IMG/VR virus record: IMGVR_UViG_3300021399_000004
Span: 64,001 to 128,000 of that record
Length of the DNA: 64,000 nucleotides
Direction: 5' to 3' (one strand)
Source: a virus
Part shown: positions 1-26,153 of the stretch, piece after piece
Layout: every line of letters starts with the position of its first letter
Position numbering within the stretch: the first letter of the stretch is position 1
The notes under the pieces: generated by a model
The model's input: the letters and a program-made list of their open reading frames with translations, nothing else
Databases searched by the model: none
What the model was told of the DNA's origin: nothing
Position numbers and translations under genes: made by a program

Positions 1-2610
1 TTATTAATTAAATTTACTTGCGAGAACACTAATGGCATTAATTCTTATGATATTGTTACCGATACAATTGATACTTTAACAGAAGTTGAATTATTGGGTA
101 TTGATTGGACTGTTACTGATACATCTGTCTTTTAGGCATTATTAACTAAGTATCACGCTGGTTAGTATATTAATATTACTGGTACGGTAAAATTAAATGG
201 TGAAATCGGTACACAAGAATTACAAGAATATTAGACTATTTGGCCACGATTAACTTGGGCTGCTGGTTATAACACTTATACATAGACACATGTAATTTAT
301 AAATATGCTGATACTAGAGATGCTGATACCAATGAAGTTATTACTACTGGTGACACTATTTATGAATGTTATGTACGGAGTGGTTCTGAAGCATTAGTTG
401 ATCCTTGGAACACAGAAGAACAATATCGTTTAATTGAAGCAGCTCCTACTAAAAAGCCAACGATTAAAGAACGTTATATTTTTGGTACAGTTTCTTCTAG
501 TGGCAGATACTCCAATTTCTCAGGTTGGACTCCTGAAGGTGATACTAGGACAATTGCTGAAATTAAGGGAGATAATGATTTTACAGTTAGCGGTGATACT
601 TATAATATTATTGCTACTTTTACTTCTACACCGCAATTATATACTATTCGTTGGTTCTTGTCTTCAGACGATACTAACCCAGTACGTGAAACCAAAGAGC
701 CTTAGGAATATGGCGGAGGCAGTAATATTGTAGCCCCAACTATTAAAGAATTGCGTAATAGTAACTATTCTTTAGTAAAGAATGCCAATTTTAACACAAC
801 TGCAAAAACTGCGACATATAGTATATTTATTGGCTGGGAAAAATCACCTAATAATATTTAGCCAACAGTAATAGGAGAGCCATATGATATTTATGGCCGT
901 TGGCTTACTCGTACTAATATTAATTATAATACCGCAATAAATAGCGATGAATATAGTACAGCAGAAAAGCTTTACTTAATAAGTAATATTCCAGAATTAC
1001 GGAGTTCTGATAAATTTGGTACATATGATTTATTCCCAATTACTTTAGGATACACTCCAATTACGGCTGGGACTAATTTATTACCTAATGGTGTAAGGAA
1101 TTATAATTCTGATACTAGTATTGATAAAACTAGTATTCAACCATTTATGAGTAATAAAGGATTCACATTAGTATTAGATTATAAATTTGATGCGAGATCT
1201 AATAATACAGCACTTGAAGCTGTGCTTGCTTCTTGTACTACTGAAATTAACGGTTCAGAGGTTGGCTTTAAATTATGTTATGATCCGCGCACTGAAGGCG
1301 TAAGTCGTACTCCGTGGATTGGAATCGGCGATATTAAAAAATATGTTGGACATACTTTTGATGCCCGTAATATAGTTGTTATTCGCTATACTACGACAAA
1401 TGATTTAATCGTTTATACTGGTAGTAATGGTACAATTTCTACTAAATTTGCCATTAATACAAGTCAATTTAGTGCAAATTCCACTATTCATTGGGATGCT
1501 AACGCACTTAAATTTAATGCACCATTGGTATTAGGAGGACTTAATAATACTGATGAGACACATATCAACGCTTATGGTACTATATTTTCTGCTATATATT
1601 GGGATGAAGATATTGGCAGAAGCGAATGTGAATCACTTGCTAACTGGTGTTATGAAACTATGACATTTGCTGTATCTGACCATAGTAGTAATAGCGCGCA
1701 TAGTACTTTAGGAGTATCTGGTAATTCTAATAAAACATTTGTTTTACATACTCTAAATAGCTCTAGTATGGGTGCCTTCAAAGAGCCAGAAGCGACTTCT
1801 ACAGAGGCTACCGCTGGCGGAGTAATTGGCTGGGGGACTTCTTCCTTACGCGATTTCTATAATAAACGTGTATTCTCTAGTTTGCCCGCAATTTTATAGT
1901 CAACTATGACATTAACTACAGTTCACTATCGTGAAGCTGTTTATAGTGCTAGTGGATATACAGCTGGATTTAGTATTACTGGGAATGACAGAACGGTTCA
2001 AGATTTTGTTTTCGCTCCTTCTTATCGTGAATTAGCTCCAGCAGAAAATACGGCGAGCTCTTATGGATCTGAAGCTAGGGGGCCACTTCCTTGGTATAAT
2101 TCTAGTACTTTTGAATTTAGAGATGGTTCTACTACTAACTTTGATAAAACACCCGAAGGAGTAGATTACTCTAAATATACAAATATTCGTTTCCCAACGT
2201 TACCGCTTCAACTTGATTCTTCTTCACCACGAAGAGTGATTTTAAATTACTCAATTTCGCGTTCTAGCGCTTACGCTGCATTGCGGGATTAGAGCCTTAC
2301 CCCACGTCGTGGCGATATCTTAATAGCAGTAAAATCTGATAACGGCGAATAGGCGTATATGTTTGTGACTGACGATGATGTCAAAGCCGGAATTACTCTA
2401 GCCTCTGCTACAGATGCTCCGTGTTTAACTCTGCCTACCAATGTAGCCGGTGGCTGGATTAAAAGTGAAAACTGGTGGACACGTTCAGTGCTAGCTTCTA
2501 CTTAGCGAGTTACTTATAAATTTATTCAAACTAGTGCCAATGGTAATATTGGAGAAAATAATTCTGTTAATAATATTGGCAATATTGTTTATAATATCGC
2601 ACTTCTATAA
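1..2610 (+). CDS. Virion/tail structural protein, C-terminal part (5' end outside window), LamG/ConA-like lectin-type region
   Basis: Frame 1 is open from nt 1 to TAA 2608-2610 and is broken only by in-frame TAG (first at 133-135). It fuses track ORFs 1147..1899 and 1906..2292. The next gene has a GGGAGG SD. Confidence 0.7.
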
Positions 2611-2631
2611 TAGTATTGGGAGGTATGTGAT

Positions 2632-3375
2632 ATGAATTATTATAAATTAATTTAGGATAACAATATAATTGGTGTCGCCACCGACGCCAATTTTTTACGC
2701 TTTTAGCCACGTCATCAAGTATTAGAGTATGCTGGCCTTGGATTTGAAGAGTATTTGGGATATAAAGGAGCTTTATATCGTGATAGTTGGATGATGCCAC
2801 TTCAAACAGAAAAATATTCTTTTAATAAAATAAAAATCCATAGTATTGATTAGGCTGAATATGATGCATTACGTGAAGCTTTAGATAAGCACGAAGTGCC
2901 ACAAGAAGTAGAGCCAGAAATACATATTACACCAGAAATTATAGATGAAGAAGCTGAGATGACCATTGACTTCGTTCGCTCCGCAAAACTCTCCGAAATG
3001 TCCCGCACCTGTAATCAAATAATTGAAGCTGGCTTTGATATTACACTTAATGAGGATGTTGAACATTTTTCTTTAACCACTCAAGATCAACTGAACTTAA
3101 TTTCTCTCGGCGCGATGGCCTAGGCTGGTACAGAACCAATTCCGTACCACGCCGATGGCGAAATTTGCCGGTTTTATTCTGCCGCAGAAATGAATCAAAT
3201 TGTTGCCGCGGCGACCGCCTTTAAGATTTATCAAACAACATACTATAATGCGTTAAAGAATTATATCAATTCCTTAGAGACTATTGAAGAAATTTCTGCA
3301 ATAACATATGGAATTGAATTACCTGAAGAATACAAATCTGAAGTTTTAAAGGCTTTAGAAAATGAAAGTAAATGA
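2632..3375 (+). CDS. Tail-fibre-associated protein (DUF4376-like segment), 247 aa
   Basis: SD GGGAGG upstream. Same-frame ORFs 2896..3123 and 3190..3375 are joined across TAG at 2653, 2704, 2851 and 3121. Ends in TGA. Confidence 0.6.
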
Positions 3376-3787
3376 ATGGCTTAAAAATTTCATACTGTTT
3401 CTATTATTTGGTTTAATATACTTTTTAATAGAAACAGTATGGAAGGGCCATTTTACGCATTGGAGTATGTTTATTGTTGGCGGTCTTTGTGGTATGTCTA
3501 TAGGATTAATTAATGAGTATTTCCCTGAGACATTAAAATTTTAGTATTAGTGTTTAATTGGCGCCGCGTTAGTAACCTTAATTGAAGGCTGTAGTGGCGT
3601 TATATTAAATATTATTTTAAAATTAAATATTTGGAATTATAGTAATATGCCGCTAAATTTCTTTTACCAACAATGTTGTATACCATTTTGTTTAGCATGG
3701 GTAGTGCTTGCTGGCGGCTGCATACTGATAGATGATTATATTCGATGGAAATTTTTAGGCGAAGAAAAAGTTAAATATTATTTTTAA
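3362..3787 (+). CDS. Multi-pass membrane protein, 141 aa (holin-like role possible)
   Basis: Track ORF 3362..3544 continues in frame through TAG 3542 and 3548 to TAA 3785-3787. Several hydrophobic segments. Confidence 0.6.
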
Positions 3788-3879
3788 TGCCAAGAAAAAA
3801 ATATATCATGCTTCCCCTTATAATATTACTTTTTATTTAGAAGGGTTTATCCCTAATAAAGAATTAAAAGGAGAATATT

Positions 3880-4029
3880 ATGCTGCAAGAAATTGAATGT
3901 GGTTTTTGTTGGAACAAACGAGACAAGAAAACAATTGAACTTTATTTCTTTGATAGGGCAAATAATATGAGGCCATGTGTCTATTGTCCTATTTGCGGGA
4001 GAAAGATGGAGGATGAGACCAATGAATGA
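3880..4029 (+). CDS. Zinc-ribbon protein, 49 aa
   Basis: SD AAAGGAG 7 nt upstream. CGFC...CPIC motifs. TGA stop. Below the track length cutoff. Confidence 0.55.
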   Translation: MLQEIECGFCWNKRDKKTIELYFFDRANNMRPCVYCPICGRKMEDETNE

Positions 4030-4453
4030 TATGAATAACCCATGGAATTCCCCTATGGGAATGAATATGAATATGAATATGGGCAATAGTCCAATGAATA
4101 TGCGTTTTACTCCGCCCGCACCGAAATATGAAGTTATCAGGGTAAATGGTGAAAACGGTGCTCGTAATTTTAGAATGGCACCAAATAGCAGTATGCTATT
4201 ATTGGATGAGACATAGCCTATCGTTTGGTATGCACAAACAGATGGCGGTGGATTTTTAACTGTAACACCTTTTGATGTTACTCCGCATCAACAAACTCCG
4301 CCGATTGATATTAATAATTTAGCTGAAAGAATAAGCAAACTGGAGGAATATTATGTACAACAATCCAATTCTGGAGCTACAAAACAATCTAAGAAGTAGC
4401 GGCAACCAGTAGCTCAATTAGCAGCAGAGCCAATGGAACTTGGGACCAATTAA
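4013..4453 (+). CDS. Hypothetical protein, 146 aa
   Basis: SD GGAGG before ATG 4013. Extends track ORF 3977..4216 through TAG 4214 and 4397 to TAA 4451-4453. Confidence 0.55.
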
Positions 4454-4475
4454 AAATTTAATGTCTTAGGTTAAA

Positions 4476-4649
4476 ATGGCTTCCAATCCTCAAATGATAG
4501 TAAACTAGTTAATTAATTCTAATTAGAATTTGCGAAATATCCTAGATATTGCGCGCTTAAATAATACTAGTTTAAAAGATATATATTATACTTTAGCGGC
4601 ATAGCGTGGAGTAGATCCCGATGCACTTTTACGAGAGTTAAATAAATAA
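4476..4649 (+). CDS. Hypothetical small protein, 57 aa
   Basis: ATG to TAA frame with 3 in-frame TAG. Fills an otherwise empty gap. No strong SD. Confidence 0.35.
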
Positions 4650-4699
4650 TATTTATATTAATAAATATTATTTAAATATATAAAAGGAGAGTGAGCACT

Positions 4700-5395
4700 A
4701 TGGGCGAAAATGGTTTAACCGCTTCTGATGTGGCACTATTATCCGGTAACAACAATGACGGCTTTGGTAATGGAGGCTGGGGCGGTATGATTTGGCTATT
4801 TGCTATTATTGCTCTTATGAACGGCGGCTGGGGCGGCTTCGGCGGCAACCGCGGCTATCAGCCTCAATATGCAACTCAAGATTTTGTACAGAATGGCTTT
4901 AATTTCAATGATTTGCAATCTCAAAATCGTGACATAATGGGCGCGATTACTAGTGGCGCTGCACAGGCTGTAGCTGCAACAAATCAGGCTAAGTATGATA
5001 ATATTAATGTTGAAAAAGACATTCAAGCGGCCTTAACCGCACAGATTGGCGATGTACGTACTAATCAGATGCAACTATTAGCAAATCAAAATGACTGCTG
5101 CTGCTCTACAAAAATGACGCTAATGGATGGCTTCAACGGCATCAATGCAGGTATTGCTCAAGCTCGTTATGAGAATGCTATGAATACGGCTGCTATTAAT
5201 AACACTACTAACGCCGGAGTACAGAAGATTCTAGATGCAATTACTGGTAATAGAATGGCAGATATGCAGAATCAAATTAACGACCTACAGCTACAGAATG
5301 CTCTCAATGGAGTGGTTCGTTATCCTAACGGCTGGACTTATAATGCTGGTAACAATCCTTTTTGCGGCAATCAATGCTGCGGTATGAACATGTAA
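4700..5395 (+). CDS. Gly/Asn/Cys-rich protein with one hydrophobic segment, 231 aa
   Basis: SD AAAGGAG precedes ATG 4700 (the track ORF starts at 4691). TAA stop followed by a terminator. Confidence 0.7.
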   Translation: MGENGLTASDVALLSGNNNDGFGNGGWGGMIWLFAIIALMNGGWGGFGGNRGYQPQYATQDFVQNGFNFNDLQSQNRDIMGAITSGAAQAVAATNQAKYDNINVEKDIQAALTAQIGDVRTNQMQLLANQNDCCCSTKMTLMDGFNGINAGIAQARYENAMNTAAINNTTNAGVQKILDAITGNRMADMQNQINDLQLQNALNGVVRYPNGWTYNAGNNPFCGNQCCGMNM

Positions 5396-5433
5396 ATTAA
5401 ACGTCGAACACATTCAGTGTGTCTTGTTTAAAA

Positions 5434-5462
5434 ATGGCACCTGGAGAGGTGCCATTTTTTTT
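5434..5462 (+). terminator. Rho-independent terminator
   Basis: Stem ATGGCACC / GGTGCCAT with a 6-nt loop, followed by a T8 run. Confidence 0.75.
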
Positions 5463-5483
5463 ATTATAAAGGAGGAATGTAAC

Positions 5484-5897
5484 ATGCTTCAACTTTATAG
5501 TGACGGTCTAACCGTAGCTGCGGGGGCCGCTATACCACTAAATAATATTACTTTTGCTAAAGGTTCTAGCGCTACACACATGGCGCCAGCAACTATTTCT
5601 TTGAACCAACGAGGCGTTTATTTAGTTAAGGTTGACGCTTATGGAAGCGTTGACGCGGTTGGTGATTTTGGTGTGCAGATAGCCGTTGACGGAGCACCCA
5701 GATTAGATGGTATTAATTTAACAACTGGCGCAGTAGGTGATCTATCTTCTGTGGCTACTCAATGCTTAGTAGTTGTCGAGAAATCTAATTGTCCATGTAA
5801 TTGTACCTCTACTGCGACAACAGTACAAATAATCAATCCTAGCACGGTTGGAGCTACCGGCGCACATTATAATGTAATCGTTTCTAAACTTTGTTAA
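5484..5897 (+). CDS. BclA-C/C1q-like (TNF-like jelly-roll) domain protein, 137 aa
   Basis: SD AAGGAGG 7 nt before ATG 5484 (in frame with track ORF 5424..5897). Fold assignment comes from remembered sequence pattern only. Confidence 0.55.
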   Translation: MLQLYSDGLTVAAGAAIPLNNITFAKGSSATHMAPATISLNQRGVYLVKVDAYGSVDAVGDFGVQIAVDGAPRLDGINLTTGAVGDLSSVATQCLVVVEKSNCPCNCTSTATTVQIINPSTVGATGAHYNVIVSKLC

Positions 5898-5911
5898 AGG
5901 AGGGATGTCGC

Positions 5912-6709
5912 ATGGCTCAAGCAAATTAGGAAGTTCAGGCGCTTTACTCCGAACTCATTGATAGAATGAAGCAAGGTGTAGAAATGCATGAACAATTGGC
6001 TGATTATTATGGCTTTTTGAATTTAGGTGGATATCAGAAATGCCATGAATATTAGATGCTATGTGAATTATTAACATATCGCAAGGCAAAAGATGCTTAC
6101 ATGCGTGAATATAATCAATTAGTGCCACTATATGGAATGGCGCCAATGAATAATAATATGAATAATATGGCCAATATGGCTAATAATAATGGACAAAATA
6201 ATAATAATGCTAATGCCACTTATAATCGTAATATGTATTCTAATGTTATCCCTGCTAATTGGTATCAACATACTCGTTATGATGTTGATGCTAGCACAAA
6301 ACGGCAAGCAGTACGAGATGGCTTTAAGCGCTGGATTGAATATGAGAAGGATACAAAGCAATTTTTACAGAATATGAGTCAACGCTTAGAGCAGGCGAAT
6401 GACCGTGAGGCCGCTCGTAAATTAGATTATTTAATTGATCACGTTGAAGGCGAGATTGAGTGTGCAGAAGAAAAAATGATGGCTCTTGAAAACTCTGGAT
6501 ATGATATGAATTATATCCTACAAGAGCAACCTCAAATGAAGTAGAAGTACGCAGAAAAGATTAAAGAATTAAATATGAAGGATCATCAGTTCCGTCGCCG
6601 CGGTTCTGGTAATTATGCAAACTATAATTATTCTGAATATGATGATGAGTATGATTATAATTATAATCGCTATTATCATAATTATCCAAGTGACTATCGT
6701 AGGTATTAA
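5912..6709 (+). CDS. Hypothetical protein with Asn/Met- and Tyr/Asn-rich tracts, 265 aa
   Basis: SD AAAGGAGGG. Joins ORF 6056..6544 across TAG 5927, 6053 and 6542. Ends at TAA 6707-6709. Confidence 0.6.
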
Positions 6710-6712
6710 TCA

Positions 6713-7084
6713 ATGATTAGATTAATTCAGAGGAGATTGATTATCCCGCGCGGCGACACTGGATCTTTTACCGTACCTACTTTAACAACTGTATCTGCTG
6801 GCGACGTAGCAGTATTTTCAATCTTTGATCGGATTACGAAAACAACCATCTTTGAAAAAATTTTTCCGGCAACCCCAGAAACATTAACGATTAATTTTTT
6901 GCATGAGGATACAGTAGGGTTGGTCCCTGGGAAATACTAGTGGGATATAAAAATTTATGGAAACCCATAGTATGATGATGAAGGAATTTTAATTGGCGGC
7001 GAAAATATTGATTCATATTATTCTGCCTATCGGTTGCCAATTTGTGAAATTAGAGAGGTCGCAGAACATGTTCCGAGAACGTGA
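6713..7084 (+). CDS. Hypothetical structural protein, 123 aa
   Basis: Track ORF 6713..6940 continues through TAG 6938 and 6968 to TGA 7082-7084. Confidence 0.55.
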
Positions 7085-7541
7085 ACGTTTACGGACAAGA
7101 GATTTATTACTTGAGTATGATATGCATATAATGCCGCCAAGACCAAGAGCCGATGGCTTGGCGGTAGCATATCCCTGGGGTAATACAAATTTATTGAATT
7201 AGGAAGATACACATTTGCCGCCGACTCCAACTCCGCAAGAACTAGCCATGTTGTACCCATGGGCTAATACAGCTATAACTATTTTAATGCATTAGTTCTT
7301 TATCGTCGCAGTTAATAATGGTTATATGGGGACTGAAGAAGAATACTTTGCAAGTTTTGGCACATATGTTGGTGACAAATGTATTATATATGGTACAATA
7401 GAAAAGTTCCCGATTGTTGGCTCTAAAGATAAATTATATTTTGATTTAGAGACTAAAATTTTATATTATTGGGAAGATGGATATACGCCAGTAAATGCAA
7501 TGTTAATTGCAGAAACAAAGTTAGATGGAGGTGAGGCATAA
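7068..7541 (+). CDS. Hypothetical tail-associated protein, 157 aa
   Basis: Same-frame ORFs 6993..7202 and 7326..7541 are joined across TAG 7200 and 7293. The KLYFDLETKILYYWEDGY motif recurs in gene 10256..10777. Confidence 0.55.
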
Positions 7542-8245
7542 TGGCCAGTAATAGTGTAAAAGTTACATTATAGATACGTCACGATACTGCTAGTAACTGG
7601 GAGACTAGAAATCCAGTTCTTGCACAAGGTGAATATGGGCTTGAAACTGATACTTTTTTAATTAAGGTCGGTGATGGCGTGCGCGATTGGGAACATTTGC
7701 CTTACTTAAATAAATTAGATGCCTCTTACTTCTAGTGGCTTGAAGATGGAACTGTTACATTTAGTGATAGCTTCATGAATACTATTGCTGCGTTAGAAGC
7801 TGCGGCTGGACAAGCAATTACAAAATTAGAGGTAATAAATCCGCCAGTTAAGGATACAGATGTCCCGAACAAAAAATATGTAGATGATGCAATACGTAAT
7901 GCAGGCCATTTAAAGAGAGCGGTTGTAGAAGTATTACCTTCGGCTGCAGAAGCTGATGAAAATACTTTATATATGATGCTGGCTGGCTCAGGCGATCATT
8001 ATGAAGAATATATGATAATTAATGGAACCTGGGATATGGTTGGCACTACTGGCGATGGAGGAAGCTCTGGCCCATATGAATTGCCCATCGCTACAGAAGC
8101 TCGACTTGGTGGAGTTAAAGCATCATCTTAGGACGGTTTTCTAGCAGTAACAGCAGAAGGATATATGACTTTTAATGGAATTCCAACAACAAAATTATAT
8201 GTTCCCACAGGAGATACTTTTATTATATATGGCGGCAGTGCATAA
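7541..8245 (+). CDS. Tail fibre protein with HylP/Mtd-N-like N-terminal motif, 234 aa
   Basis: ATG overlaps the previous TAA. RHDTASNWETRNPVLAQGEYGLETDT..KVGDGVRDWEHLPY motif. TAG at 7571, 7733 and 8129. Ends at TAA 8243-8245. Confidence 0.7.
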
Positions 8246-8258
8246 GGAGGTGGCGTAA

Positions 8259-10223: not shown

Positions 10224-10255
10224 ACTTGGCTGAAACCGATGCCAAGGAGGTGTTT

Positions 10256-10777
10256 ATGATGGCATCGAAAACCGTAAACACAAGAATTCAGTTGAAAAAT
10301 GATACTGAAGCACACTGGAAATAGGCCGTAAACTTTACGCCTCTCAAGGGAGAACTCATTATCTATTCATCTGATAATGGTTCTCCCGCTTTTTCTCGTT
10401 TAAAGGTGGGAGATGGGAGTACAAAAGTTAATGATTTGCCTTTTATTGATGCTGGGACGATTAATGGTCTAGAAAATTTTTTAATAAAAGTAAAAAATTA
10501 TAATGCTTTGCCGAATATTGGATCTGATAAATTATTATATTTAGATTTAAGCACTAGTAATATTTATTATTGGGACTCACAGAAGGGCTATGTAAAAGCA
10601 TTTTAGTATAGTTCCGCCACTATTCAACCAGTATAGAGTTGGGATGCCGGAACAATGACTGAGGCTTCTATTAGAAATACTAGTTTAGTTATTACTAATG
10701 GAACAATCCCGAAATTAACTTTAGGGTCACAAATTAATGTAATAACAAACATAGGTGAGGTGAGTAATAATGTCTAA
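10256..10777 (+). CDS. Tail fibre-related protein (HylP-like motif), 173 aa
   Basis: SD AAGGAGG. Contains ORF 10406..10606. TAG at 10322, 10604 and 10634. TAA stop. Confidence 0.65.
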
Positions 10778-13136: not shown

Positions 13137-13150
13137 GGGGGGCGAATTAA

Positions 13151-16100
13151 GTGAGTTATATAAATAAAATAAAGGTAGGCGATACTACACACTTAATTGA
13201 GCCTACCTTGTATGAAAAATGTGATACTGGCGAGGCGACCGCTACTAAATAGACTGATGTAATAAATAATTTCAGTTTAGTAAAAGGAGTGCAAGTAGCG
13301 GTAAAATTTACTAATACAAATACTGCCGCTGTCAACAATTTAAAATTATAGATTGGAAATACTACGGCTAAACCTATTAAATATCGTGGAGGAAATTTAC
13401 CTTCCACAGATACTTTAGCGGCAGGTCATATTTATAATTTTGTATATGATGGCACTAATTGGGAATTAGTTGGAGACTTAGATACAAATAGTAATACGAT
13501 ACCTACTGCATATTGTACTACTGCTGCTAATACCGCTGCAAAAACAGCGTCATGTACGAATTATGCATTATTAAGTAATAGTTGGATACATATATTATTC
13601 ACTAACAGCAATACAGCACAAGACGCTTTAACATTAAATATAAATGGTAAAGGCGCAAAACCAATTTTTATTGACGGAAAAGCATCAAGCAGTTCTAATT
13701 ATACGTTAAATGCTGGCTCTTATTTAGCATTTTATAATGGTAATAATTATCAAATTAGAACAGACGGCAAGCTACCAGGTAGCATTGCGGGTGATGCAGC
13801 AACAGTAAATGGATATACTGTTGACAAAGCTGTTCCCGAAGATGCCGTATTTACAGATACTAATAAATATCATAAAAGCGGTTCATGGAGTGGATTAACT
13901 TATACTGCAACCGCGGTTAATAATGCGGAGAAATTAGAATTTACCATTCCTGATAATTATGGTGATACAAAAAATCCCTATGGGACTAAAGCGAAGAACC
14001 TTATCCTTGCTGGGCCTTCTAGCGGAAGTGATGCAGCACCAAAGTTTAGAGCATTGGTTGCAGATGATATACCGGATATTAGTGAAACATATAAGACTTT
14101 AGGAACTTCATAGTTTTATGGCTCAGAAAATACTAGTAAGTTTTATAGTACACGTATTAGATCTGACGGTTCTGGTTGGGCCTGGAGTATATTTGACGCA
14201 TATAAATCTGATCAAACAAGCAAAATTGCTGATTTAAGCGTTTATGGGGCATAGAATGAAATGACATATATGTATATTACTGCTGTAAGAGATTCTGCTA
14301 CATTAACATGGAATTCTAAGGGTAATATACGTATTTATCCAGCAACCGGTGCAACAATAGCAAATGGTATGCGTTTAGCTACGCCACAATTGACCGTAGG
14401 ACAATATAATGCTCAAGATGATGGAAGTTCATTATATGTCGCAGGTAGCGGCACCTTTACCGATCAATTGAATGTAGGCGGTGATGTAATTGTTGCCGGC
14501 AATACTATAAGAGCACTTGCCTACAAAGACTCTTTAAGCACCTCAGACATCCCTAATCTTTCTCCTTCGATTTCAATTGGAGCAGGCACTGCTTCTAATG
14601 CTCCTACGGTTAATGTAACAGTAAACGGGGTAAGTGGCACAGCGAAATCTATTACCACGGCAACAACCGGGGTTTATGGTGTAACTAAATTAAGTGATGC
14701 AATTAATAGCACGAGTACTGCGCTTGCTGCTACGGCGAATGCGGTAAAGACGAGTTATGATTTGGCTAATGCGGCGGTGCCAAAAGTGTGGCAATCTCCT
14801 CTAACAAAGGGAACGACTCCAAGTAGTGAAGCTTATTATTGTGGCCAAATAATAGTGGATAGTGGAGGCACCGCTGTATCAAATAGATTGGCTATAATAG
14901 AGCATCTTTTAGATACGAATAATGTCAATCATACTTACATAAGAACTTACACTGCAACATCTGGTAGTAATAGCCATACATATTTAAGAATTGGGTCTGA
15001 TGAACAGGTATAGACAAACGGGCATCTTTATGCGGGTACTTTAGCAACCGCTAGTGAAAGAAGAATACGCGCCCAAGCCCTTGCAGGAACTATATACATA
15101 TATGCGGCAGGGACAGCGACTGGCAATCGAGGAATATATGGACATAATAATGCAGGAACTGGAGCCCCAATATTAATCTTAGACCAAAATAATAAAATTA
15201 GCAATTTAGCAAAAGCAACCTGCAATATTGAAACTTCTGGTGTTATATATGCTTCAGGTGAAGGATTACATCAAGTAATTGCAAAAAATACCTCTGATAA
15301 AATTGAAGTAAGCTTGCACAATGCGGCTTCTGGCAACCATGGTATTTATTCAAACGGCTACGGTTCTACCGCAGATAACTTTACTGCAAGCGGTAAATGG
15401 CTAATTTATAGAGGTACTAGCGGGAAAACGGTAATTAACAATTATCCACTTATCTCTAGTGAAGGAGTAGGTTCAAAGTGGAATAAAGCAAGAGATAACG
15501 CAATTATAAAGACAAGCTCTATCGTCTCATATACAGCCCTTGCTTCAATAAAAACTACTAATGGATCTTGGGATATAGGTGCTTATGATAATGCTAGTTT
15601 TACCGATGACTTAATATTTAGTTATATTTCTGATACTACTTATTCAGGCAGCGCCGCTACTACAGATGCGCAAATTAAGTTCTTAGAGAACGGTCATATT
15701 GTAGCGCAATTAGATGGGAATGCTTCAACCGCTACCTATGCCACTGTGACGCAAACTGTCCCAACTAGTAATACCTCATATTTCCTACCTTTTATTGCTG
15801 GCAACGCAGATGGAAATTATGCAGTTAGAGCAAATTCTTTATTCTATATATACATGACCGCAAACGGTGCTTAGTCATACTAGTGTATTGGCGGTCCTTC
15901 TTCCAGAGGAGGCATAACATTACACGGAGGGGCAGGATCTTATGGCAATTTAATTCCTTCCGCAGTCACAGAAAATAGAACCTGGACATTACCAGATGCT
16001 ACTGGAACGATAGCTTTAACTTCTAGTACAATTACAGGAAACGCCGGCGGCCTAACCAATAAAACATTTAACTCAACAAACACTATTGATAATCTATCTG

Positions 16101-19100
16101 GGACATATTCATTCTAGGGCACAGGTGGTTATTGGGCTGATACTGACTGGGTTGGTTTTCAAGTTGGTAGTACAAAGGATAAATTCTAGGTTGTTGGGAA
16201 AAATAGCGGGTTAATTATGCGCCAGAACGATGCTGGCGGTGCTGATACCGCAAGCTGGTCAGATTGGAAGAGAGTAGTAACGGCTACTGTGGATACGGCT
16301 ATTGGCGCTGCAAATACTCCAGTATATATAAATGCTACTGGTGATGTCGTGGCTGGCACTCAATTAAAAGCGCTTGCATATAAGGATTCTTTGGCCGCAT
16401 CGGATATTCCAGATTTGAGTGGGAGTTATTTGAAACTAACAGGTGGCGCGCTAACTGGGGCTGTTACTAATACTAGTACTATTATTAGCGTTTCTACCAG
16501 TGGTATTTATAGTGCTGCTTCTAGCCCTATGTTTTATTTTTTACGTGCAAATAATACTAATACAGAAAATAAGTTAGGAGCGATTTTCGTTAATACTAAA
16601 ACAGTAAATGAAAAGCTAGTTCCAAAACAAATATATTTTAGAACTTATCAATATGACGCTACGACTGGAAATCCTAAAGAAGCATGGGAACAATATAGGC
16701 TGCCTGAATTAACGGTAGGAAATTCAACTTAGTCGTATGACATTCTTACCTCAAAATCACTTGTAACTATCGCTTAGGGCGGTACAGGTATCTCAACAAC
16801 TGATGCCCATAAGGTCTTAATAGGCCCAACAAGTGGTAGCGCGGCGGCACCTACATGGCGTACTTTAGCTGCTAGTGATATACCTGATTTGAGTAGTAAG
16901 TATGCTTTAGTTATAAATGGAACTGCCGCGAATCAATTACTTGGTTTTAAAGGGACTAGTGGGACACACCATTCTTCAGTAAGTGATTATAACGATCATA
17001 TTTTTACTCTTGTATCAACAATTAAGGGAGTATTTTTATGGGATAATACAAGCAGTAAAACAGTTTGGACTCTTGATTCCACTGCTTATCTCAAATTAAC
17101 TGGCGGTACAGTTACTGGTGATTTAACAGTTGATGGGACATTAACTGGTACATTAACAGGCACTGCTGATTATGCAGAAGCATTGAAGAATTAGTATACT
17201 TATAATACACGAATTGCTGATGCAAATATAACTCAAGGAAATAACGGCGGTGTAAAATTTTTCTTAGCAACTGGTTCTATGACCGCAAACAAACCAGCAA
17301 GTGACGGATATATTTTACATTTTAATTGGGATAACGGCACTGGCTGGAGTTCTCAATTTTATATTCCTAACGGAGGAGCTGCTTCACCACAATATCGTAG
17401 TCATACTAATATTTCAACTTGGACTGATTGGAAGACTTTCCTGACTAGCGCAAATTATACTGATTACACAGTAACAAAAACCGGCTCCGGCGCATCAGGA
17501 ACCTGGGACATCTCAGTTAGCGGTGTTGCCGCACAAGCAACCGCCGCAAATTTGACAAGTACTGCTAATGGAATTGCTTATTTCTCTGATACTGCTGGTA
17601 CTTTTGATTCAACATCTTCTATATTAGTAGATGATGCAAATGGTAAAATAAATATTACAGGAAAATCTGGTACAAGTGGTGAATTCGTTGCTAAAAGAGG
17701 TTCAGAATCTTTTTACTTTGGCTTTGGTACTGGTAATACTAACCGAGGAATATATAGTTAGACTGCACCAACTGCACACTGGATGATTTATGAGGATTCG
17801 GATGGGCATGTTTACTTACCAGTAGGTACTGGCACGACTTATTGGGCTGTTGCAGATGCAAGCTCAAGCGCACGTGGCTTAGTAAACACTAGTGCTCAAC
17901 AATTTAAGGGAATGAAGAGGTTCTGGGGGCTAGGTATTACTGGTTACGATGGAAGTGGTGGATCTCGTTATAAAGACATAGTATTCCAGCAATCAAGTTC
18001 TCCAAATGACATCGGTGGAAGACTTCGTTATGATATTGGCAATGCAACAAATGTTAGTAGCGGTACATTTTCCTTCTGGGAATATAGTCCTCAATCAACT
18101 GCTACTACAACTAGCACTGGTCATGCTGAAAAATATTTCCTACCTACAACAGCAACAGGATTGACAGCGGACGTTACTTATAATATACTAACTACAAAAC
18201 CAACTAACAATAAAATATAGTTCATTGCGAACAGCACAGTATCTTCTGGCGGTGGTATTACATTTGTAAATGGAAGTACAGATTATGGGTATGGAATATA
18301 TCATAATAAAACAAATCTATGGATTGGCGCTACTTCAAATACCTCTGACATACACACTGGAGGTTTATGTTTACATGCTGGTAAAGCCACTAGTGGATAT
18401 ATGAATAGAAAAGCATTTTTATCAGTCGGAGAGAGTGACACTGCGACTGCATCAAAAGCTAAAATGATAGTGTATGGTGGTGATGATGGTAAATCTATTG
18501 GCGGCGCGACTTCAGGCCCTGTTTATATTGATACTTATGGTCAAGCCAGGTCCGTCACTTCTGTCCCCATAGATACAGGCGGTACAGGTGCTACTACAGC
18601 AGCGGGTGCTTTAGAAAATATTATGAATAATACTGGTATAATTGGTAGCCCGACCTTACCTATTTATTGGGAAGGCAGCCTTGGATAGTTTATGTCTTGT
18701 TCAGATGTATTTGTAAGGACTACCGGCGCTAGTCTAACAGGAGCTCTTACTTTTAACCCATCAGATGAAAGTAAACCAATTATTAATGGTAATAATACTG
18801 GTGCTAATATGGCAATCTTCGCTGGACACGATCAAGCTACAACCGCAAATTACTTATTAAATAGTGCCATAGTTATTCGTGAACAAGACAGAGTTGGTGA
18901 TTCAAAAGGAGGATGGCAGACTGGCCCCCGCCGTTATGCTCCGCGACTTGGATTCAATTGGAGCGGAGTTGCTGGTGGCTCTATAATTTTAAATAGTAGC
19001 GGGCAATTTGCTTTTTATGGTAGCAATGGAACTACATTAGCTGCAGTTCGTGGTGCTAGTTTTAATTCATCTGTTGCAAGTAATGACTATGCTGAATATC

Positions 19101-19480
19101 GTCTCACTAATCCTAGCGCGCGACCGGGGCAGTGTGTTATTGACTTAGATGATGGTCATCTTGCTATTAGCACTGAACGTCTACAGCCTGGCGCCTAGAT
19201 AGTATCTGATACTTATGGTTTTACTATGGGTGAAGATGATTAGCATAAAACCCCAATCGCAGTATCCGGGCGCGCCCTCGTCTACACCTACCGTAACCGT
19301 GCTGAATACCATGCTGGCATGGCTGTCTGTTCTGCGCCTAATGGCACAGTAGATATAATGACTCGCGAAGAAATTCGTGACTACCCTGATTGTATTGTGG
19401 GTATTGTTTCTGAAATACCCGCATATGGAAAATGGCATGACATTTATGTAAATGGCCGAATCTGGATTAAGGTTCGTTAA
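13151..19480 (+). CDS. Giant modular tail fibre protein, 2109 aa, with C-terminal peptidase-G2/IMC-like autoprocessing region
   Basis: Nine track ORFs (14261.. to 18692..19198) share frame 2. There are 17 in-frame TAG and no TAA/TGA between GTG 13151 and TAA 19478-19480. The C-terminus SNDYAEY...IVSDTYGF...VSGRALV resembles an intramolecular chaperone domain. Confidence 0.8.
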
Positions 19481-19495
19481 TAGGAGGTAATTTAT

Positions 19496-19837
19496 ATGAA
19501 ACTAATTTTAAATAATAACGTAGAAGAAACTATCCAATTTGATACTTGCTCTCGTAACTTAAATATGGGAGAACCTAATGTTTTCTTTGACATTTATGTT
19601 AATGCAAACAGCTTAGAACATTTTAATACAATGCAATATATTACTAAATATGCTGATGATTATTTTACTGCAATTAAAGTAACCGATAATGATGGCAATG
19701 TAGTTTTTAATCAAACAGATATTATTGGGAAAATCGCAAGTTACTCTGAATCTTTTGGCGATGGATACTATAATGCGAATGCTGCGGTACAGATTTTAAA
19801 ATCTATTCCTCAAACTACGCCAGAAGAAACTGAATAA
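19496..19837 (+). CDS. Hypothetical protein, 113 aa
   Basis: SD TAGGAGG. Intact track ORF. TAA stop followed by a terminator. Confidence 0.75.
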   Translation: MKLILNNNVEETIQFDTCSRNLNMGEPNVFFDIYVNANSLEHFNTMQYITKYADDYFTAIKVTDNDGNVVFNQTDIIGKIASYSESFGDGYYNANAAVQILKSIPQTTPEETE

Positions 19838-19843
19838 AAAAAT

Positions 19844-19871
19844 AAGGCCCCACATTAAGTGGGGCCTTTTT
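19844..19871 (+). terminator. Rho-independent terminator
   Basis: Stem AAGGCCCCAC / GTGGGGCCTT with a 5-nt loop and a T run. Confidence 0.8.
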
Positions 19872-19891
19872 CTTGTATAGGAGGGATTACT

Positions 19892-20146
19892 ATGAATGTA
19901 ATGAGCAAGCGTGGTCAATTAGATAATATAGTAACTTATGAACATTTTTGTGATACTGCGGCCGACCTCGCAAATATAGATCCTAAATATGCTACTTTAG
20001 GTTCAGTAGCAATTGTAGTACAGGGATAGGCTGGAATTGAAGCCTATATGGCAAATAGTAAAGGTGAATGGGTATTGGTAGTCGGTGGCGTTGACGAGGA
20101 GGAAGAAGAAGTAACTCCATCTGAAGGCGGTGATAATAATGGCTGA
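19892..20146 (+). CDS. Hypothetical protein with acidic tail, 84 aa
   Basis: SD AGGAGGG. One in-frame TAG. TGA stop overlaps the next start. Confidence 0.6.
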
Positions 20147-22190
20147 TATGGTTGATGTTATCCTCGCTAGCGGATTAAGTTCTAGAGGACAAATTAAAAC
20201 TTACGCCCAACTTGCGGCAAAAGCTGCCGCGCAAGCCAATGAGGCGGTTAATACTGCTAATAATTTGGTAAATAATTTAGATGAATTAACTCAATAGACT
20301 AATTAGAATAATGAGAATGCTGAGCAAGCTCTTCAGGACGCGCAAACTGCATTAACGCAAGTTAATAATATATTAAATGATGTTACTAGTGCAGCAGCAG
20401 ATGAAATTGATAAATTAATTTTATCTATGGAAAACATTAATGGTGTAAACGCTATGGCTGTAAAATTAGATACTACTTATCCAGACAATACTACACGAAG
20501 CATTTCAGAATTGGTAAAATTTTACAAATCCACTGGATTAAATGAAGATGGCGGTATGACGCAAAAAGCCATTACTGAAGCCCTACAAGAGTTATCTACT
20601 AATATAAACATAACATTAACAAATTAGATTACTGCTGTAGATACAAGGATCACTAATGTTTATAATGAATTAAATAATAGTATTAATCAAACAAATACTC
20701 GAATTACTAATATTATAAATAATGGTGGAGGCAGCGGTGGTGGCACGATGCCAGTTTTTTCTCCAGACGACGAAGGTAAAGTAATCATTATCGGCCCAGA
20801 TGGAACGCCTATTCCAAGTGATAATATTACTGAAGTAGAATTAATAGAAGCATTAATTGGCACGGGAAGTTATATTTTAAAAAATTGCGTAGGCTTGACT
20901 TCTGATTATGAAAATAGAATTTTTATTCGCACACAGGAAGCTAAAAATTTTACTATTTCGTCAGATTTTGATAAGTTTGAAATGTATGGCGGCCGTATGC
21001 GTTGTAATGTATCTGATGATGGCCGCATCGTTGCTTTTTATGGTGACGCAAATTATAAAGATGACGGATCTAATGGTCAAGTTATGGTATATTAGCCTAA
21101 ATTTTATTATAAACGATTAATTAATAAAACAACCTCGACAAGTAGTGGACGTAATATTGAAAATGAACAACTTATTATTTCTCCTTATGAACAGCAAGGA
21201 TTCAAAGTTCATCCATTATTTTTAGATAAATATAATCATGAACTACCTTATGTTTTAATTGGCGCCTATGAAGGGTGCGCTTATTCTACATCTACAGGTT
21301 CTTATGATTTGATAAATAGCGCAACTACAGATTTTTCCACTGATAAACTTTCATCCATAGCAGGCGCGAAACCGATTAGTGGTAGTAATAAAGTTATGAC
21401 TAAAGAAGGTGTGATTTAGCTCGCTAAAAATCGTGGAGATGGCTGGGGCACAACAACTCTTTAGGCTGCAAGTGCAGAACAAATGTTACTAATTATTGAA
21501 TTTGGCTCTATGAATGGTTAGAGAAGCATAGAAAAAGGTATTTGTTTATATCCTACTAGTATAAGTAAAAATAACGCGGCAAATACTGGAGCTACTTCTA
21601 CTCTAGGAAACATGACAGGCGCTTCTGAAACAAGTGCAATAATAAATGATGCAACAAATCCTACTATATATAATGAAGATGGATATAGATCTATATCTTA
21701 TAGGGGCGTCGAGAATCCTTGGGGCAATATTTGGAAAATTCTTGATGGATGTTATATTTATGGTAATGGTGCTAATCAAGGCGGCGAGCTGATGATTTAG
21801 AATTATGATGCAAATAATAATGAATATATTTATGAATCAGTTGGCTTTATGCTGCCTTCTAGATTTAGCTGGATTGCAAATTTTGGTTATGGCTCTGAAA
21901 AATATGACTGGGTTTATTTTCCTTCAAACTGCAATGATAGCGCTAATAGCTTATTACCAGTAGGCGACCAAGTATGGACTACCGCTAATCTAAATAATAA
22001 TCATATAGTGGGATATGGCGGGGCCTGGGGCTTTGAAGAGTTTAATGGCCCATTTTATTATGCCTGTGATAAGTTATTAACAGATTCTCCAAATACTTAT
22101 GGCGCAAGATTAATGTTTACACCAACCTATAATTCAACTATTACAAATTCAAATTATTCTCTATGGCGTACTCGCTGGGAGGGGAATTAA
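20139..22190 (+). CDS. Tail/receptor-binding protein with N-terminal coiled coil, 683 aa
   Basis: Same-frame ORFs 20427.., 20748.., 21612.. and 21849..22190 are joined only by TAG. Ends in TAA. Contains an SISYRGVENPWGNIW motif. Confidence 0.75.
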
Positions 22191-22191
22191 T

Positions 22192-22449
22192 ATGATTATA
22201 CATAAAGATGTAAAAGGCTCAACCAAGCCAAACGCCATTGATGTAACTCCAAGTGCGGTCTTTATTGCAACCAATATTAAACCATATTCAATAACATTAG
22301 ATGATGTAGTAGTTTCTGGCTATTAGTATGATTGTACTGAATATACTAAAGATGAATATATTACTTATATTGCTAAAGAAAATGAAGATAAAATTACCGC
22401 ACTCGAAGAAGAATTGTAGGCCGCAAAGATTCTATTGGGGGTGGAATAA
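22192..22449 (+). CDS. Hypothetical small protein, 85 aa
   Basis: ATG lies just after the previous TAA. 2 in-frame TAG. Ends in TAA TAA. Confidence 0.55.
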
Positions 22450-22452
22450 TAA

Positions 22453-22857
22453 ATGACTTTATTAGAGTTAGCACAAAAATTACGCCCATACATTGAAAAA
22501 GCTGCAATATCTTTAGATGATGCGGATGCGCTAGAAGCTATCAATTTATTTCCTGTTTGGGATGTAAATAAGGAAGATGGGTATAAGAAAGATGAGCGCG
22601 TAAGATATGATAATATTCTATATAAATGTTTACAGGATCATATTCCACAAGAAAATTGGACGCCAGTTGCAGCATCGAGTTTATGGGCAAAAGTTTTAAT
22701 TCCCGATGAAAATATTATACCTGAATGGGAGCAGCCAGATAGCACTAATTCATATTAGATTGGTGATAAAGTTACTCATAATGGTAAAACTTGGGAAAAC
22801 ACTGTTGCCAATAATGTTTGGGAGCCTGGCGTTTATGGGTGGAGTGAGGTAGCATGA
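22453..22857 (+). CDS. Protein with two CBM5/12-like carbohydrate-binding motifs, 134 aa
   Basis: Track ORF 22453..22758 continues through TAG 22756 to TGA 22855-22857. Contains Y..GD.V...G..W...N.W.P motifs. Confidence 0.6.
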
Positions 22858-24383
22858 AAATAAAAGTTCTTTTAACTCGTCCCTCGAATGCTTCGTATTT
22901 TAATACCACTATTAATAGCGAAGTAGAAGTTGAATTAGAGGAATACGTTGCGGCGGTAGTAGCCTCGGAGATTAGTAACTCTAATCTAGAGGCGTGCTGC
23001 GCGCAAGCTATTGCCGCGCGCACTTTTGCAGTTAGTAGAGGAGTATTAGAAGGAAAAACAATTTCTGACTCCTCTGCTACTGCGCAAGCCTATCGCGCCG
23101 AAAGATTTAGTAAAGAAAAATACCCAAATTGTGTTGCCGCCGCAGAAGAAACAGCCAACTTAATTTTAACTTATAAGGGCAAACCTATTAGCGCTGTTTA
23201 TAGTTCAAGCAATGGCGGCCGCACGGTTTCTTCTAAGGAAAAATGGGGCGGTTCTCGCGCATATTTAATTGAGCAGGATGACCCTTGGGATAAAGCTGCA
23301 TCAGGCGGGCGCAAAACCGGACATGGTGTAGGCATGAGTTAGGCGGGATGCAAATGGGCTGGGGCGCATGGTTATAGTTATAAATAGATATTAAAATTTT
23401 ATTATCCCAATACAGAAATAAAATAGGTGATGCCTATGAATGAGAATGAGAAAGCAAAGGCAGTTGTTGAATTGGCGAAAAGTTGTTTGGGGTATCCTTA
23501 TGTTTTTGCGGCGTGGGGTGAAAATTGCACCCCTGAAAATAGAAAACGCCGTGCGCGGGCAGACCACCCTACAATTATTAGTAAGTGTTAGGTACTAAAT
23601 GGAAAGAAAAAGGGAGCTACCTGCAAGGGCTGTAAATATGAAGGAACACAAATCTTTGATTGTCGCGGTTTTACCTATTATTGTCTAAAAGAAAATGGAA
23701 TTGTTATTAATGGGCAAGGCGCGACAAGCCAGTGGAATGACAATGCTAATTGGATAAAAAAGGGCCCAATTGCAGAGATGCCCGATGTAGTATGTTGTAT
23801 TTTTTAGCAGAATGGTAACAAGATGAAGCATACCGGATTACATATTGGCGGCGGAAAAGTTATTCACTGTTCTGTTGAAGTAAAAAATGATAATGTTTCG
23901 CGCAAAGATTGGACGCATTACGCTATTCCTTATGGACTATATACTAAGGAGGAGTTAGATAATATGAATGTGGTACAATATAGAAAGACTATTAAGAAGG
24001 GCTCTAAAGGAGACGAAGTAAAGGAGCTACAAAATATCCTAAAAGAGCTCGGACTATATACTGGAGAAGTAGATGGTAAATTTGGTAGTGGCACCGCAGA
24101 AGCAGTGCGGCAATACCAAGCGAGCCGCGGCCTGACTGTTGACGGAGTGGTTGGCACAGATACTTGGAATGCATTGCTCGCAGAAGGCCATTGGCCAGAT
24201 GGCGCGCCCGAAGCTCCTGAAGAGCCAGAATTTGAAATGCCTATGGATCAAGAAGAATTGCGCGCAGAGCTATTGCTGATGCAATTAAAACTTGGCAATC
24301 TAAAGGATGACTTAGAGGTAATTTCTACTTCTATTAATGAATTAATGGATGAATTAAACAAAATAAATAAAGGGGAGACCTAA
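22854..24383 (+). CDS. Lysis enzyme: SpoIID/LytB-like region + NlpC/P60 endopeptidase + PG_binding_1 + coiled coil (one 509-aa frame if TAG is sense)
   Basis: Frame 0 is continuous from 22854 to TAA 24381-24383, with TAG at 23340, 23385, 23424, 23589 and 23805. Motifs: AARTFAV..SSSNGGRT; DCRGF..HTGLHIG..VIHCS; LGLYTGEVDGKFGSGT. TAG 23424 falls at the domain boundary. Confidence 0.75.
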
Positions 24384-24425
24384 CGGTCTCCCCTTTATTT
24401 TTTTTTTTTTTTTTTTTTTTTTTTT
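24372..24425. terminator. Bidirectional terminator between the convergent late and - strand modules, with a 28-nt T tract
   Basis: Stem GGGGAGACC / GGTCTCCCC with loop TAAC, then T28 (24398-24425). Confidence 0.8.
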
Positions 24426-24837
24426 AGGAGTGCGATACTTGGTCGTGCAGTTCACGCTCTCGGTATGCCATGGACTTTGTTAATGCTTCACCATATAGAT
24501 TGAGGCCCGACATGAGCTTATTAAGCTCTCTGTCAAGCATGTTTACATAATTATTTGCTCGTCTGAAAAAGCTGCGATGAAGCTTATCCTTCATGCGATG
24601 GAAAGCTAGTCGCTTACCAAGTTCTTCATTCCACTCATCGTTTTCTGCGCAAGTAGCCACACCGATAAAACGCTTGGGCATTTCTACTCGGCTATTTACA
24701 CCATGATACCAGTTACAATTCTGCCAAAGGTACTTATACAGTAGCCACTGTGAGTCACTATAAACACAAACTACCTTACGCTTATCCTTGTTTACATAGA
24801 ACTTGCAATCCTGCGGACGAATATTAATCTTAAACAT
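24424..24837 (-). CDS. Hypothetical protein, 137 aa, tandem paralog of 24830..25222
   Basis: SD GAAAGGA before the internal ATG of track ORF 24424..24873. Shares an MPK.F.G.A.CA..DEWN.E.GK..A motif with its neighbour. Confidence 0.75.
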   Translation of the reverse strand: MFKINIRPQDCKFYVNKDKRKVVCVYSDSQWLLYKYLWQNCNWYHGVNSRVEMPKRFIGVATCAENDEWNEELGKRLAFHRMKDKLHRSFFRRANNYVNMLDRELNKLMSGLNLYGEALTKSMAYRERELHDQVSHS

Positions 24838-25222
24838 AATTAATCCTTTCAATATTCTTGTAGATTTTTGCACGATAATTAACAGATCGTTCCTGCCAAT
24901 TATCCATTAGTTTTTCCATAGCCTTGATTCCTGCTTGGACATGTTTGTCAAAAGAACGCGCATAATTTTCTTTTGCGCGCGCATAAGCAATTTTCTTGCC
25001 TACTTCCAGATTCCATTCATCTCCGGGCGCACAACGTGCCATTCCCGTAAAATGCTTTGGCATCCGCATTGCGTCGCTTACCCGAATTGGATAGGGCCAA
25101 CACATTTCTTCCTCAAAGAAATCAAGTACCGCTCGTTCTGTATTAGGGATAATACAGAACACAAGACGGTCCTCAATACTGTAAGCCCAATTGCAATCTT
25201 CCATTTTAATATCAATGTGCAT
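24830..25222 (-). CDS. Hypothetical protein, 130 aa, tandem paralog
   Basis: Track ORF with an SD-like GAGAGGTAAG. Motif shared with 24424..24837. Confidence 0.75.
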   Translation of the reverse strand: MHIDIKMEDCNWAYSIEDRLVFCIIPNTERAVLDFFEEEMCWPYPIRVSDAMRMPKHFTGMARCAPGDEWNLEVGKKIAYARAKENYARSFDKHVQAGIKAMEKLMDNWQERSVNYRAKIYKNIERINYV

Positions 25223-25933: not shown

Positions 25934-25974
25934 ATTGCGGCCAAATTCCTTCCCTTTCCTTTGTTACTATAATA

Positions 25975-26003
25975 ATTATACATAAATATTTAGGAAAAGT
26001 CAA
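25975..26003 (-). promoter_or_regulatory. SigA/sigma-70-type promoter
   Basis: TTGACT-17-TATAAT on the - strand. Confidence 0.65.
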
Positions 26004-26151: not shown

Positions 26152-26153
26152 AC

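Follow-up and report, generated by a model that had tools for sequence, protein, structure and literature searches.

Phages that read the stop codon TAG as glutamine (Gln) are known among crAss-like phages, Lak phages and the Firmicutes-infecting clades of Borges et al. (bioRxiv 10.1101/2021.08.26.457843), who also proposed a temporal-gating model for recoded phages. Recoding according to translation table 15 has been validated by metaproteomics (PMC9523058), the NCBI taxonomy includes a 'Caudoviricetes code 15 clade' to which the Phassvirus group belongs, and in phAss-1, a 136-kb phage of the human gut (OQ749652; PMC10607447), TAG is read as Gln in the genes for the large terminase subunit (TerL), portal, tape measure and tail fibre. 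Here we analyse a stretch of 64,000 bases with a G+C content of 39% (IMG/VR record IMGVR_UViG_3300021399_000004, positions 64,001 to 128,000; hereafter the window). It is part of a large tailed phage that comes from a sheep-rumen metagenome, belongs to the SPbeta / YonF-terminase type and lies on a contig no shorter than 129 kb. We hold it to be very probable that this phage reads TAG as Gln in most of its tail, lysis, helicase, packaging and head-assembly genes, and that its putative early genes avoid the codon.

Like other table-15 phages, this one has TAG at Gln positions of structural and lysis genes, a depletion of the recoded stop from early genes, a portion of the genome still readable under the standard code, relatives carrying a suppressor transfer RNA (tRNA) with a CUA anticodon, and a host presumed to use the standard code. 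Unlike them, it is a rumen phage with an SPbeta-like virion module, its boundary is a regulon defined by promoters and palindromes rather than simply a genome half, and no suppressor or release-factor gene is found in the accessible 94 kb. With phAss-1 it shares a genome of about 130–140 kb and a homologous head module (32% identity in TerL, 29% in portal and 36% in the major capsid protein), but the two are distant, at about 30% protein identity and with no nucleotide match. Specifically, a megablast search of window positions 1–24383 against GenBank phages, a collection including OQ749652, returned nothing, and the TerL identity compares with a nucleotide criterion of about 80% for the genus Phassvirus, whose members are 80–86% identical to each other (PMC10607447); the phage therefore falls outside that genus.

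The gene order YonG-YonF-YonE-YonD-YonC-YonB...YomW-YomV-YomU-tape measure is shared with SPbeta/phi3T, Lactococcus phages 949/AM2, Bacillus phages Thrax1/FADO, Brevibacillus phage Sundance and Alicyclobacillus phage KKP_3916. These YonF-terminase phages of Firmicutes likewise have genomes above 100 kb and early genes on the opposite strand; however, the six that were aligned carry Gln codons where this phage has TAG, and TerL identity is 25–34% (to phages of Bacillus, Lactococcus, Brevibacillus, Clostridium and others). The dual coding described with Mgcod (bioRxiv 10.1101/2022.06.29.495998) also divides genomes into blocks with and without the reassigned stop, but here the TAG-free genes are code-neutral: TAG is not a stop in them either, and there is no second code block.

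TAG as an In-Frame Sense Codon

The gene calls used were those on the ENA assembly ERZ28612961 (SHIW14-1_SAMN02144230-S010, scaffold_147, 129,144 bp), adjusted for a 20-base poly-T offset. The window matches the reverse of this scaffold at about 50.8–114.8 kb, with mismatches at a few bases and in one poly-T run. Under code 11 the longest open reading frame (ORF) of the window is 362 amino acids (aa) long, and with TAG as sense it reaches 2110 codons; the ORFs of at least 150 aa add up to 27.7 kb in the first case and to 49.7 kb in the second, which bears out an earlier first-pass annotation in its warning that standard-code annotation breaks up the large genes. Sense readings of TGA and TAA were tried and rejected, the longest ORFs in the region 1–24 kb being only 577 and 416 aa, respectively.

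The 36 plus-strand genes, 7 of which lie just past the window end, comprise 13,356 codons with 147 in-frame TAG and not a single TAA or TGA. Since TAA and TGA make up about 4.6% of the codons in a plus-strand frame, chance is excluded as the source of this difference. The TAG counts given by the first-pass annotation for individual frames proved exact (17, 12, 15 and, in the helicase gene at 36379..37788, 8, without TAA or TGA). It was also right that plus-strand genes are broken solely by TAG, but not that all of them contain it: the codon is absent from 4700..5395, 5484..5897, 19496..19837, 38251..38634 and 42418..42921. Of the 36 genes, 27 end in TAA and 9 in TGA, and a Shine–Dalgarno-like motif precedes 92 of 99 gene starts, compared to 12% of random positions, in agreement with the proposal that true ends are TAA or TGA with a Shine–Dalgarno motif and a start codon downstream. 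TAG accounts for 30% of all TAG, CAA and CAG codons, and its positions are spread evenly along the genes, with 2 of 133 within the last 10 codons, as expected for a sense codon and unlike a leaky terminator.

In addition, conserved domains run through TAG, as had been claimed for NlpC/P60, the SF2 helicase and TerL. Single profile matches span TAG in all three: the NlpC/P60 match (residues 265–356) includes the TAG at 312, the ResIII match (35–131) that at 47, and the match to the TerL N-terminus (14–207) one TAG. Similarly, a PHROG tail-protein match (262–663) spans five TAG and a YonG-like PHROG match (5–271) three. For comparison with relatives, 80 IMG/VR loci encoding the tail protein and 29 encoding a full TerL were aligned as DNA under code 11, which keeps TAG visible. 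Inside the aligned genes of the relatives we counted 511 TAG, 5 TAA and 2 TGA (all alignments), and the 14 closest tail-protein loci are likewise recoded.

The opposite view, that TAG is a true stop and that the pieces are separate genes, pseudogenes or assembly errors, draws on the fact that standard-code calling yields fragments each of which looks like an ORF. It meets the difficulty that one stop codon of the three interrupts the frames (147 to 0), that profile matches and homologue alignments continue through TAG, and that the pattern recurs in relatives, where TAG exchanges with CAA/CAG at the same alignment columns. Moreover, in the independent ENA assembly of the same phage population the calls read through the same genes, among them the 591-aa TerL and the 469-aa helicase. 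When TAG columns are compared with homologues, as the first-pass annotation had suggested, TAG falls on conserved residues and not on gaps or termini. At the level of sequence, the alignments have already refuted the true-stop view, and we give it practically no chance. In conclusion, only TAA and TGA terminate the genes of this phage.

Glutamine at TAG Positions

At the 45 TAG sites covered by at least five homologues, the commonest residue is Gln at 24 and glutamate (Glu) at 6, while any other residue is commonest at no more than 3. BLOSUM62 sums over 42 TAG sites rank Gln (91.7) ahead of Glu (45.6), Lys (22.0), Ser (3.5), Tyr (-60) and Leu (-71). The most conserved positions are clear: tail-protein sites 319 and 461 hold Gln in 79 of 80 and 80 of 80 homologues, respectively. 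TerL site 62 (TAG at 63511–63513) lies in L-L-P-Y-[TAG]-R, where the conserved motif is P-[YF]-Q-R, and the Gln position assigned to it by the first-pass annotation is occupied in 25 relatives by Gln (17) or TAG (8). The cultured standard-code phages that align here (KKP_3916, FADO, Sundance, Thrax1 and AM2) have Gln in all five cases at site 62, and Gln stands in four of four such phages at TerL site 380. At three sites of TerL and the tail protein every relative has either Gln or TAG. In the reverse direction, 29% of the relatives' in-frame stops lie opposite a Gln of the window (alignments of at least 50% identity), compared to a background of 2.8%. Taken together, the Gln alignments and the BLOSUM62 sums indicate that TAG encodes Gln, and the first-pass proposal of a sense codon, probably Gln, is upheld by these alignments along with the profile matches described above.

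A different residue (Glu, Lys, Ser, Leu, Tyr or pyrrolysine) could in principle be inserted at TAG. Glu is the candidate with most in its favour, being commonest at six sites and second in the BLOSUM62 sum, and the relatives' TAG stands opposite a Glu of the window in 22%. Nevertheless, Gln scores twice as high as Glu, and the values for Ser, Leu and Tyr are near zero or strongly negative; furthermore, no residue but Gln stands at the invariant sites (319 and 461 of the tail protein, 62 and 380 of TerL). Adding the features of the relatives' tRNA(CUA) described below, we judge another residue to be very improbable compared with Gln.

A Regulon Free of TAG

Between 38 and 56 kb, the 35 minus-strand genes contain no in-frame TAG in 3,654 codons, where about 40 would be expected at the plus-strand rate; in their off-frames, TAG occurs 29 and 22 times. 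These genes never use TAG as a stop either, because the read-through caller would then show internal TAG, and none was seen. Hence, the genes of this block use TAG neither as a sense codon nor as a stop. A second recoding, or non-coding DNA, was considered for this ORF-poor region and rejected, as it is filled with dense, small standard-code genes with PHROG and Pfam matches.

The genes of the block are organised in repeated cassettes. On the minus strand, the order is the stop codon of the prior gene, a terminator hairpin, TTAGATGTTNAAACATCTAA, TTGACA-N17-(TG)nTATAAT, a conserved GTTCC...GGAAC leader, a Shine–Dalgarno motif and ATG. The perfect 20-bp palindrome TTAGATGTTNAAACATCTAA has 38 copies in the window (0.01 expected), all of them at 38135–57239. 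Each copy is located about 10–40 nucleotides upstream of TTGACA-N17-TATAAT, a near-consensus sigma-70-type promoter, with one copy per small gene. This points to TTAGATGTTNAAACATCTAA as the putative operator through which a dimeric regulator would govern some 37 monocistronic genes as one regulon. Two of the TAG-free plus-strand genes listed above (38251..38634 and 42418..42921) sit behind the same type of cassette; because these cassette-driven genes also lack TAG, the code boundary follows the regulon and not the strand. In conclusion, the recoding is regulon-specific and not genome-wide.

TAG use differs among the virion genes as well. The major capsid (355 aa), decoration (204 aa) and tail-tube (327 aa) proteins, encoded 3' of the window at 67908–69605 and 73422–74405 in window coordinates, contain no TAG. 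The absence of TAG in these genes and in 4700..5395 and 5484..5897 suggests selection against the codon in the highest-expressed late genes. The tape-measure gene (L126 15765–20438; from window coordinate 75434 onward), called at the exceptional length of 5608 aa, has 61 TAG in its first 1557 codons, which is 3.9% compared to 1.1% overall. In this phage, both regulon and expression class separate the genes that use TAG from those that do not.

Two features adjoin the block. The first, at 56060–59130, is a 3-kb stretch of about 21% G+C with no credible ORF and five more palindrome-promoter cassettes without an obvious gene; it includes a (TATATG)n-like microsatellite at 58150–58480 and an (AAT)n run near 58595, and could code for small RNAs or serve as an origin or packaging region. 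The second is a GC-rich island at 59130–60900 (about 54% G+C versus 39%) with 3–4 minus-strand genes, including 59465..59683 and 60126..60782, each bracketed by GGGGAGGG...CCCTCCCC hairpins; the island resembles an insert gained by horizontal transfer. The ORF at 60090..61127 was discarded as a gene, since it is the antisense of a GC-rich minus-strand gene.

Proposed Delay of Translation and the Decoding Agent

By analogy with the model of Borges et al., the TAG-free cassette genes would be early genes, readable by the unmodified host ribosome, and the TAG-bearing genes would become translatable only once a Gln-charged suppressor tRNA(CUA) is present, a form of temporal gating. Abundant proteins would avoid TAG since suppression may be slow or limiting, and the suppressor would probably be phage-encoded, as in the relatives, from a part of the genome outside the window and the approximately 94 kb of the 129-kb contig that were examined. 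A more far-reaching version, which we regard as tentative and rather doubtful, is that TAG acts as a translational timer superimposed on host-type transcription, with a TAG-free regulon of 38 promoters and with helicase and packaging/head operons that would wait for a non-canonical suppressor, represented in relatives by the long-arm tRNA(CUA) described below. If TAG were such a timer, the suppressor may reside in the unread part of the genome, may have been missed by detection, or may be supplied in trans.

Several observations weigh against this account of TAG as Gln and of its avoidance in early genes. At 21 of the 45 TAG sites Gln does not lead, and Glu ranks second. The window, the stretch from -5300 to 80107 in window coordinates and the examined 94 kb of the contig yielded no tRNA whatsoever, which leaves the decoding agent unseen there; an Rfam scan of the whole window at the gathering threshold gave nothing, and a scan for the pattern of a CUA anticodon stem-loop with a T-arm behind it gave none in the examined contig stretch. 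Likewise, the precomputed Pfam tables for this stretch list no release-factor or aminoacyl-tRNA synthetase domains. Consensus TTGACA-N17-TATAAT sequences without the palindrome precede the helicase gene and the packaging/head operon, both of which contain TAG; with TAG-bearing genes behind sigma-70-type promoters, 'early promoter = TAG-free' is not a clean rule. Finally, the timing model is built on analogy.

The lack of tRNA genes also bears on how TAG would be read. In many of the 14 closest tail-protein loci a tRNA array is located just 3' of the tail-protein gene, and five include tRNA(CUA); in this phage the corresponding position is empty. The search for tRNA(CUA) and release-factor genes proposed in the first-pass annotation was thus negative in the examined 94 kb of this contig and positive, for tRNA(CUA), in its relatives. 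Among TAG-recoded phage genomes in general, Borges et al. (bioRxiv 10.1101/2021.08.26.457843) found a TAG suppressor in only 40%. These facts are compatible with TAG being read as Gln without a phage-encoded suppressor, that is, by the near-cognate host tRNA-Gln(CUG) after inhibition of the release factor RF1, by a suppressor of the host or of a co-infecting phage, or by an unconventional RNA. We consider such an arrangement unlikely. Of the 129-kb contig, some 35 kb went unread (about 12 kb of this should be the rest of the tape-measure gene), a second contig with the same 145-aa protein extends to 140.5 kb, many relatives encode tRNA(CUA), and efficient near-cognate reading of at least 147 sites would be unprecedented.

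A phage-encoded suppressor that inserts Gln agrees better with the tRNA(CUA) of the relatives, which is built on a tRNA-Gln body, with UGGGG or AGGGG in the acceptor, a weak or mismatched 1-72 pair, G73, and a D-arm identical to that of the phage tRNA-Gln(UUG). Its variable arm is about 20 nucleotides long. A pattern scan of IMG/VR recovered 12 distinct long-arm tRNA(CUA) of 88–93 nucleotides, mostly on contigs of 130–180 kb (L006 12791–12883, L007 4573–4664, L010 19704–19792, L014 8123–8211, and further loci L130, L131, L136, L137, L143, L149, L158 and L163); other phages in the same scan carry ordinary tRNA(CUA) of 72–77 nucleotides, and the Sup-CTA of phAss-1 is also of normal length (77 nucleotides, one read), unlike the long-arm form of the rumen relatives. 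The cloverleaf of the long-arm form covaries at 17 of 20 pairs; the variable-arm stem and a conserved YUGA loop were judged by eye. A full-text literature search retrieved no paper that ties the variable arm to code-15 phage suppressors, and none of the papers searched contains the long-arm architecture.

A long variable arm is a feature of tRNA-Ser, tRNA-Leu and tRNA-Tyr, and ARAGORN labels the relatives' tRNA(CUA) 'Pyl' from its anticodon; both could be taken to favour a residue other than Gln. However, the 7/5 cloverleaf and the tRNA-Gln-like acceptor and D-arm speak against a Ser, Leu or Tyr identity, as they do against the 8/4 or 9/3 architecture of an 'allo-tRNA'. As for pyrrolysine, tRNA-Pyl has a very short variable loop, unlike the molecules described here; the Pfam tables contain no Pyl-related match, TAG aligns to Gln, and the tRNA(CUA) is Gln-like with a long arm.

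Genome Context

The features of the window are listed in Table 1. A TAG-free protein of the window is encoded on ENA scaffold_147 and on short JGI and Logan contigs of the same sheep-rumen data, and the same 145-aa protein is present on the second contig mentioned above. An exact 37-mer taken at the end of the window had no match in IMG/VR, and the TerL fragment that code 11 would give is not on record. Beyond the 3' end of the window, the scaffold continues with TerL, portal, YonD, a YonC-like protein, YonB, YomW, YomV, the YomU tube protein and the tape measure. The Pfam families YonG_N, YonD_N, YonB, YomW, YomV_2nd, YomU_Tube and PhageMin_Tail occur in SPbeta order, and the agreement with SPbeta-type gene order was confirmed by tblastn and annotated synteny.

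Table 1. Genes and gene groups of the window, with TAG content and associated signals (positions are window coordinates)
Feature	Position	Strand	TAG codons and remarks
Tail-associated protein, 3' part of 2698 aa	1..2610	+	10 TAG in window, 28 in the 2636 codons seen; TAA end
Eleven close-set virion/tail-accessory genes	2632..8245	+	TAA or TGA ends; 8 genes with 2–4 TAG each, none in 3880..4029, 4700..5395 and 5484..5897
Tail-fibre-like protein, 654 aa	8259..10223	+	12 TAG
173-aa protein	10256..10777	+	3 TAG
Tail-fibre protein, 788 aa	10770..13136	+	15 TAG
Tail fibre, 2109 aa, Pfam Phage_fiber_2	13151..19480	+	2110 codons, 17 TAG, no TAA/TGA
Tail protein, 683 aa, phrog_5302 (E 6e-54)	20139..22190	+	8 TAG
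Two small genes, 85 and 134 aa (second with CBM_5_12)	22192..22857	+	2 and 1 TAG
Endolysin, 509 aa, SpoIID + NlpC/P60 + PG_binding_1	22854..24383	+	5 TAG
34 close-set genes (dCMP deaminase, HAD, DUF551, others)	24424..35677	-	10 TAG in 6 genes: 27332..27679, 27844..28071, 31359..31586, 32326..32622, 33559..33759, 34072..34263
ResIII/SF2 helicase, 469 aa	36379..37788	+	8 TAG; TTGACA-N17-TATAAT promoter at 36334
About 37 small genes, 35 minus and 2 plus	38135..56089	mostly -	no TAG
431-aa protein, weakly similar to a PHROG with sigma-factor annotation	61133..62428	+	3 TAG; consensus promoter at 61077; opens the packaging/head operon
YonG-like protein, 315 aa	62388..63335	+	4 TAG; Thrax1 homologue annotated as terminase small subunit
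YonF-type large terminase, 591 aa, first 224 codons	63328..64000	+	2 TAG in window, 8 in whole gene

For the longest fibre gene, the 370 codons upstream of ATG 14261 are stop-free and homologous to the N-terminus of the preceding fibre gene at 10770..13136 (E 5e-12). Because of this homology, its start is probably GTG 13151, and the ENA call from ATG 14261 (1739 aa) probably represents a truncated form.

The 34 minus-strand genes at 24.4–35.7 kb are intermediate in their TAG use and confirm the in-frame TAG that had been noticed on that strand at 27.3–34.3 kb. In three of the six TAG-bearing genes the codon falls within, or in the space separating, the CxxC pairs of a zinc ribbon, suggesting that read-through would be needed for a complete fold.

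Intergenic regions of note are the following. A bidirectional terminator hairpin (GGGGAGACC-TAAC-GGTCTCCCC) is located at 24370–24425, between the endolysin gene and the convergent minus-strand genes; the poly-T run after it has 28 residues in the window versus 8 in the ENA record, so that the run appears polymorphic or error-prone. The divergent spacer at 35680–36380, between the minus-strand operon and the helicase gene, contains GC-rich inverted repeats (36040–36140) flanked by AT-rich (TATA)n runs, and is a possible origin or regulatory hub.

Discussion

The first-pass annotation had placed the recoding in the context of gut phage lineages. This was correct insofar as TAG-to-Gln recoding of phages as such is known, but the phage studied here is an SPbeta-like rumen phage and belongs neither to the crAss nor to the Lak phages. 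Phage TAG-to-Gln recoding has already been published, including for a distantly related group, and the present SPbeta-like lineage is a new case. What it adds is a clear regulon boundary, abundant proteins free of TAG, and the odd suppressors of its relatives.

For the annotation of such phages the consequence is direct: under the standard code nearly every large gene is broken, including those for fibres, endolysin, helicase, terminase, portal and tape measure, and code-aware gene calling is needed for rumen viromes. The long-arm, tRNA-Gln-like suppressors of the relatives raise a question of aminoacylation identity. With regard to the biology of this phage, the lack of TAG in the capsid, decoration and tube genes suggests a cost of suppression that is visible to selection. 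Finally, the split between TAG-free and recoded genes is unusually legible here, and the repeated operator-promoter cassette makes temporal gating testable by reporter assays or transcriptomics.

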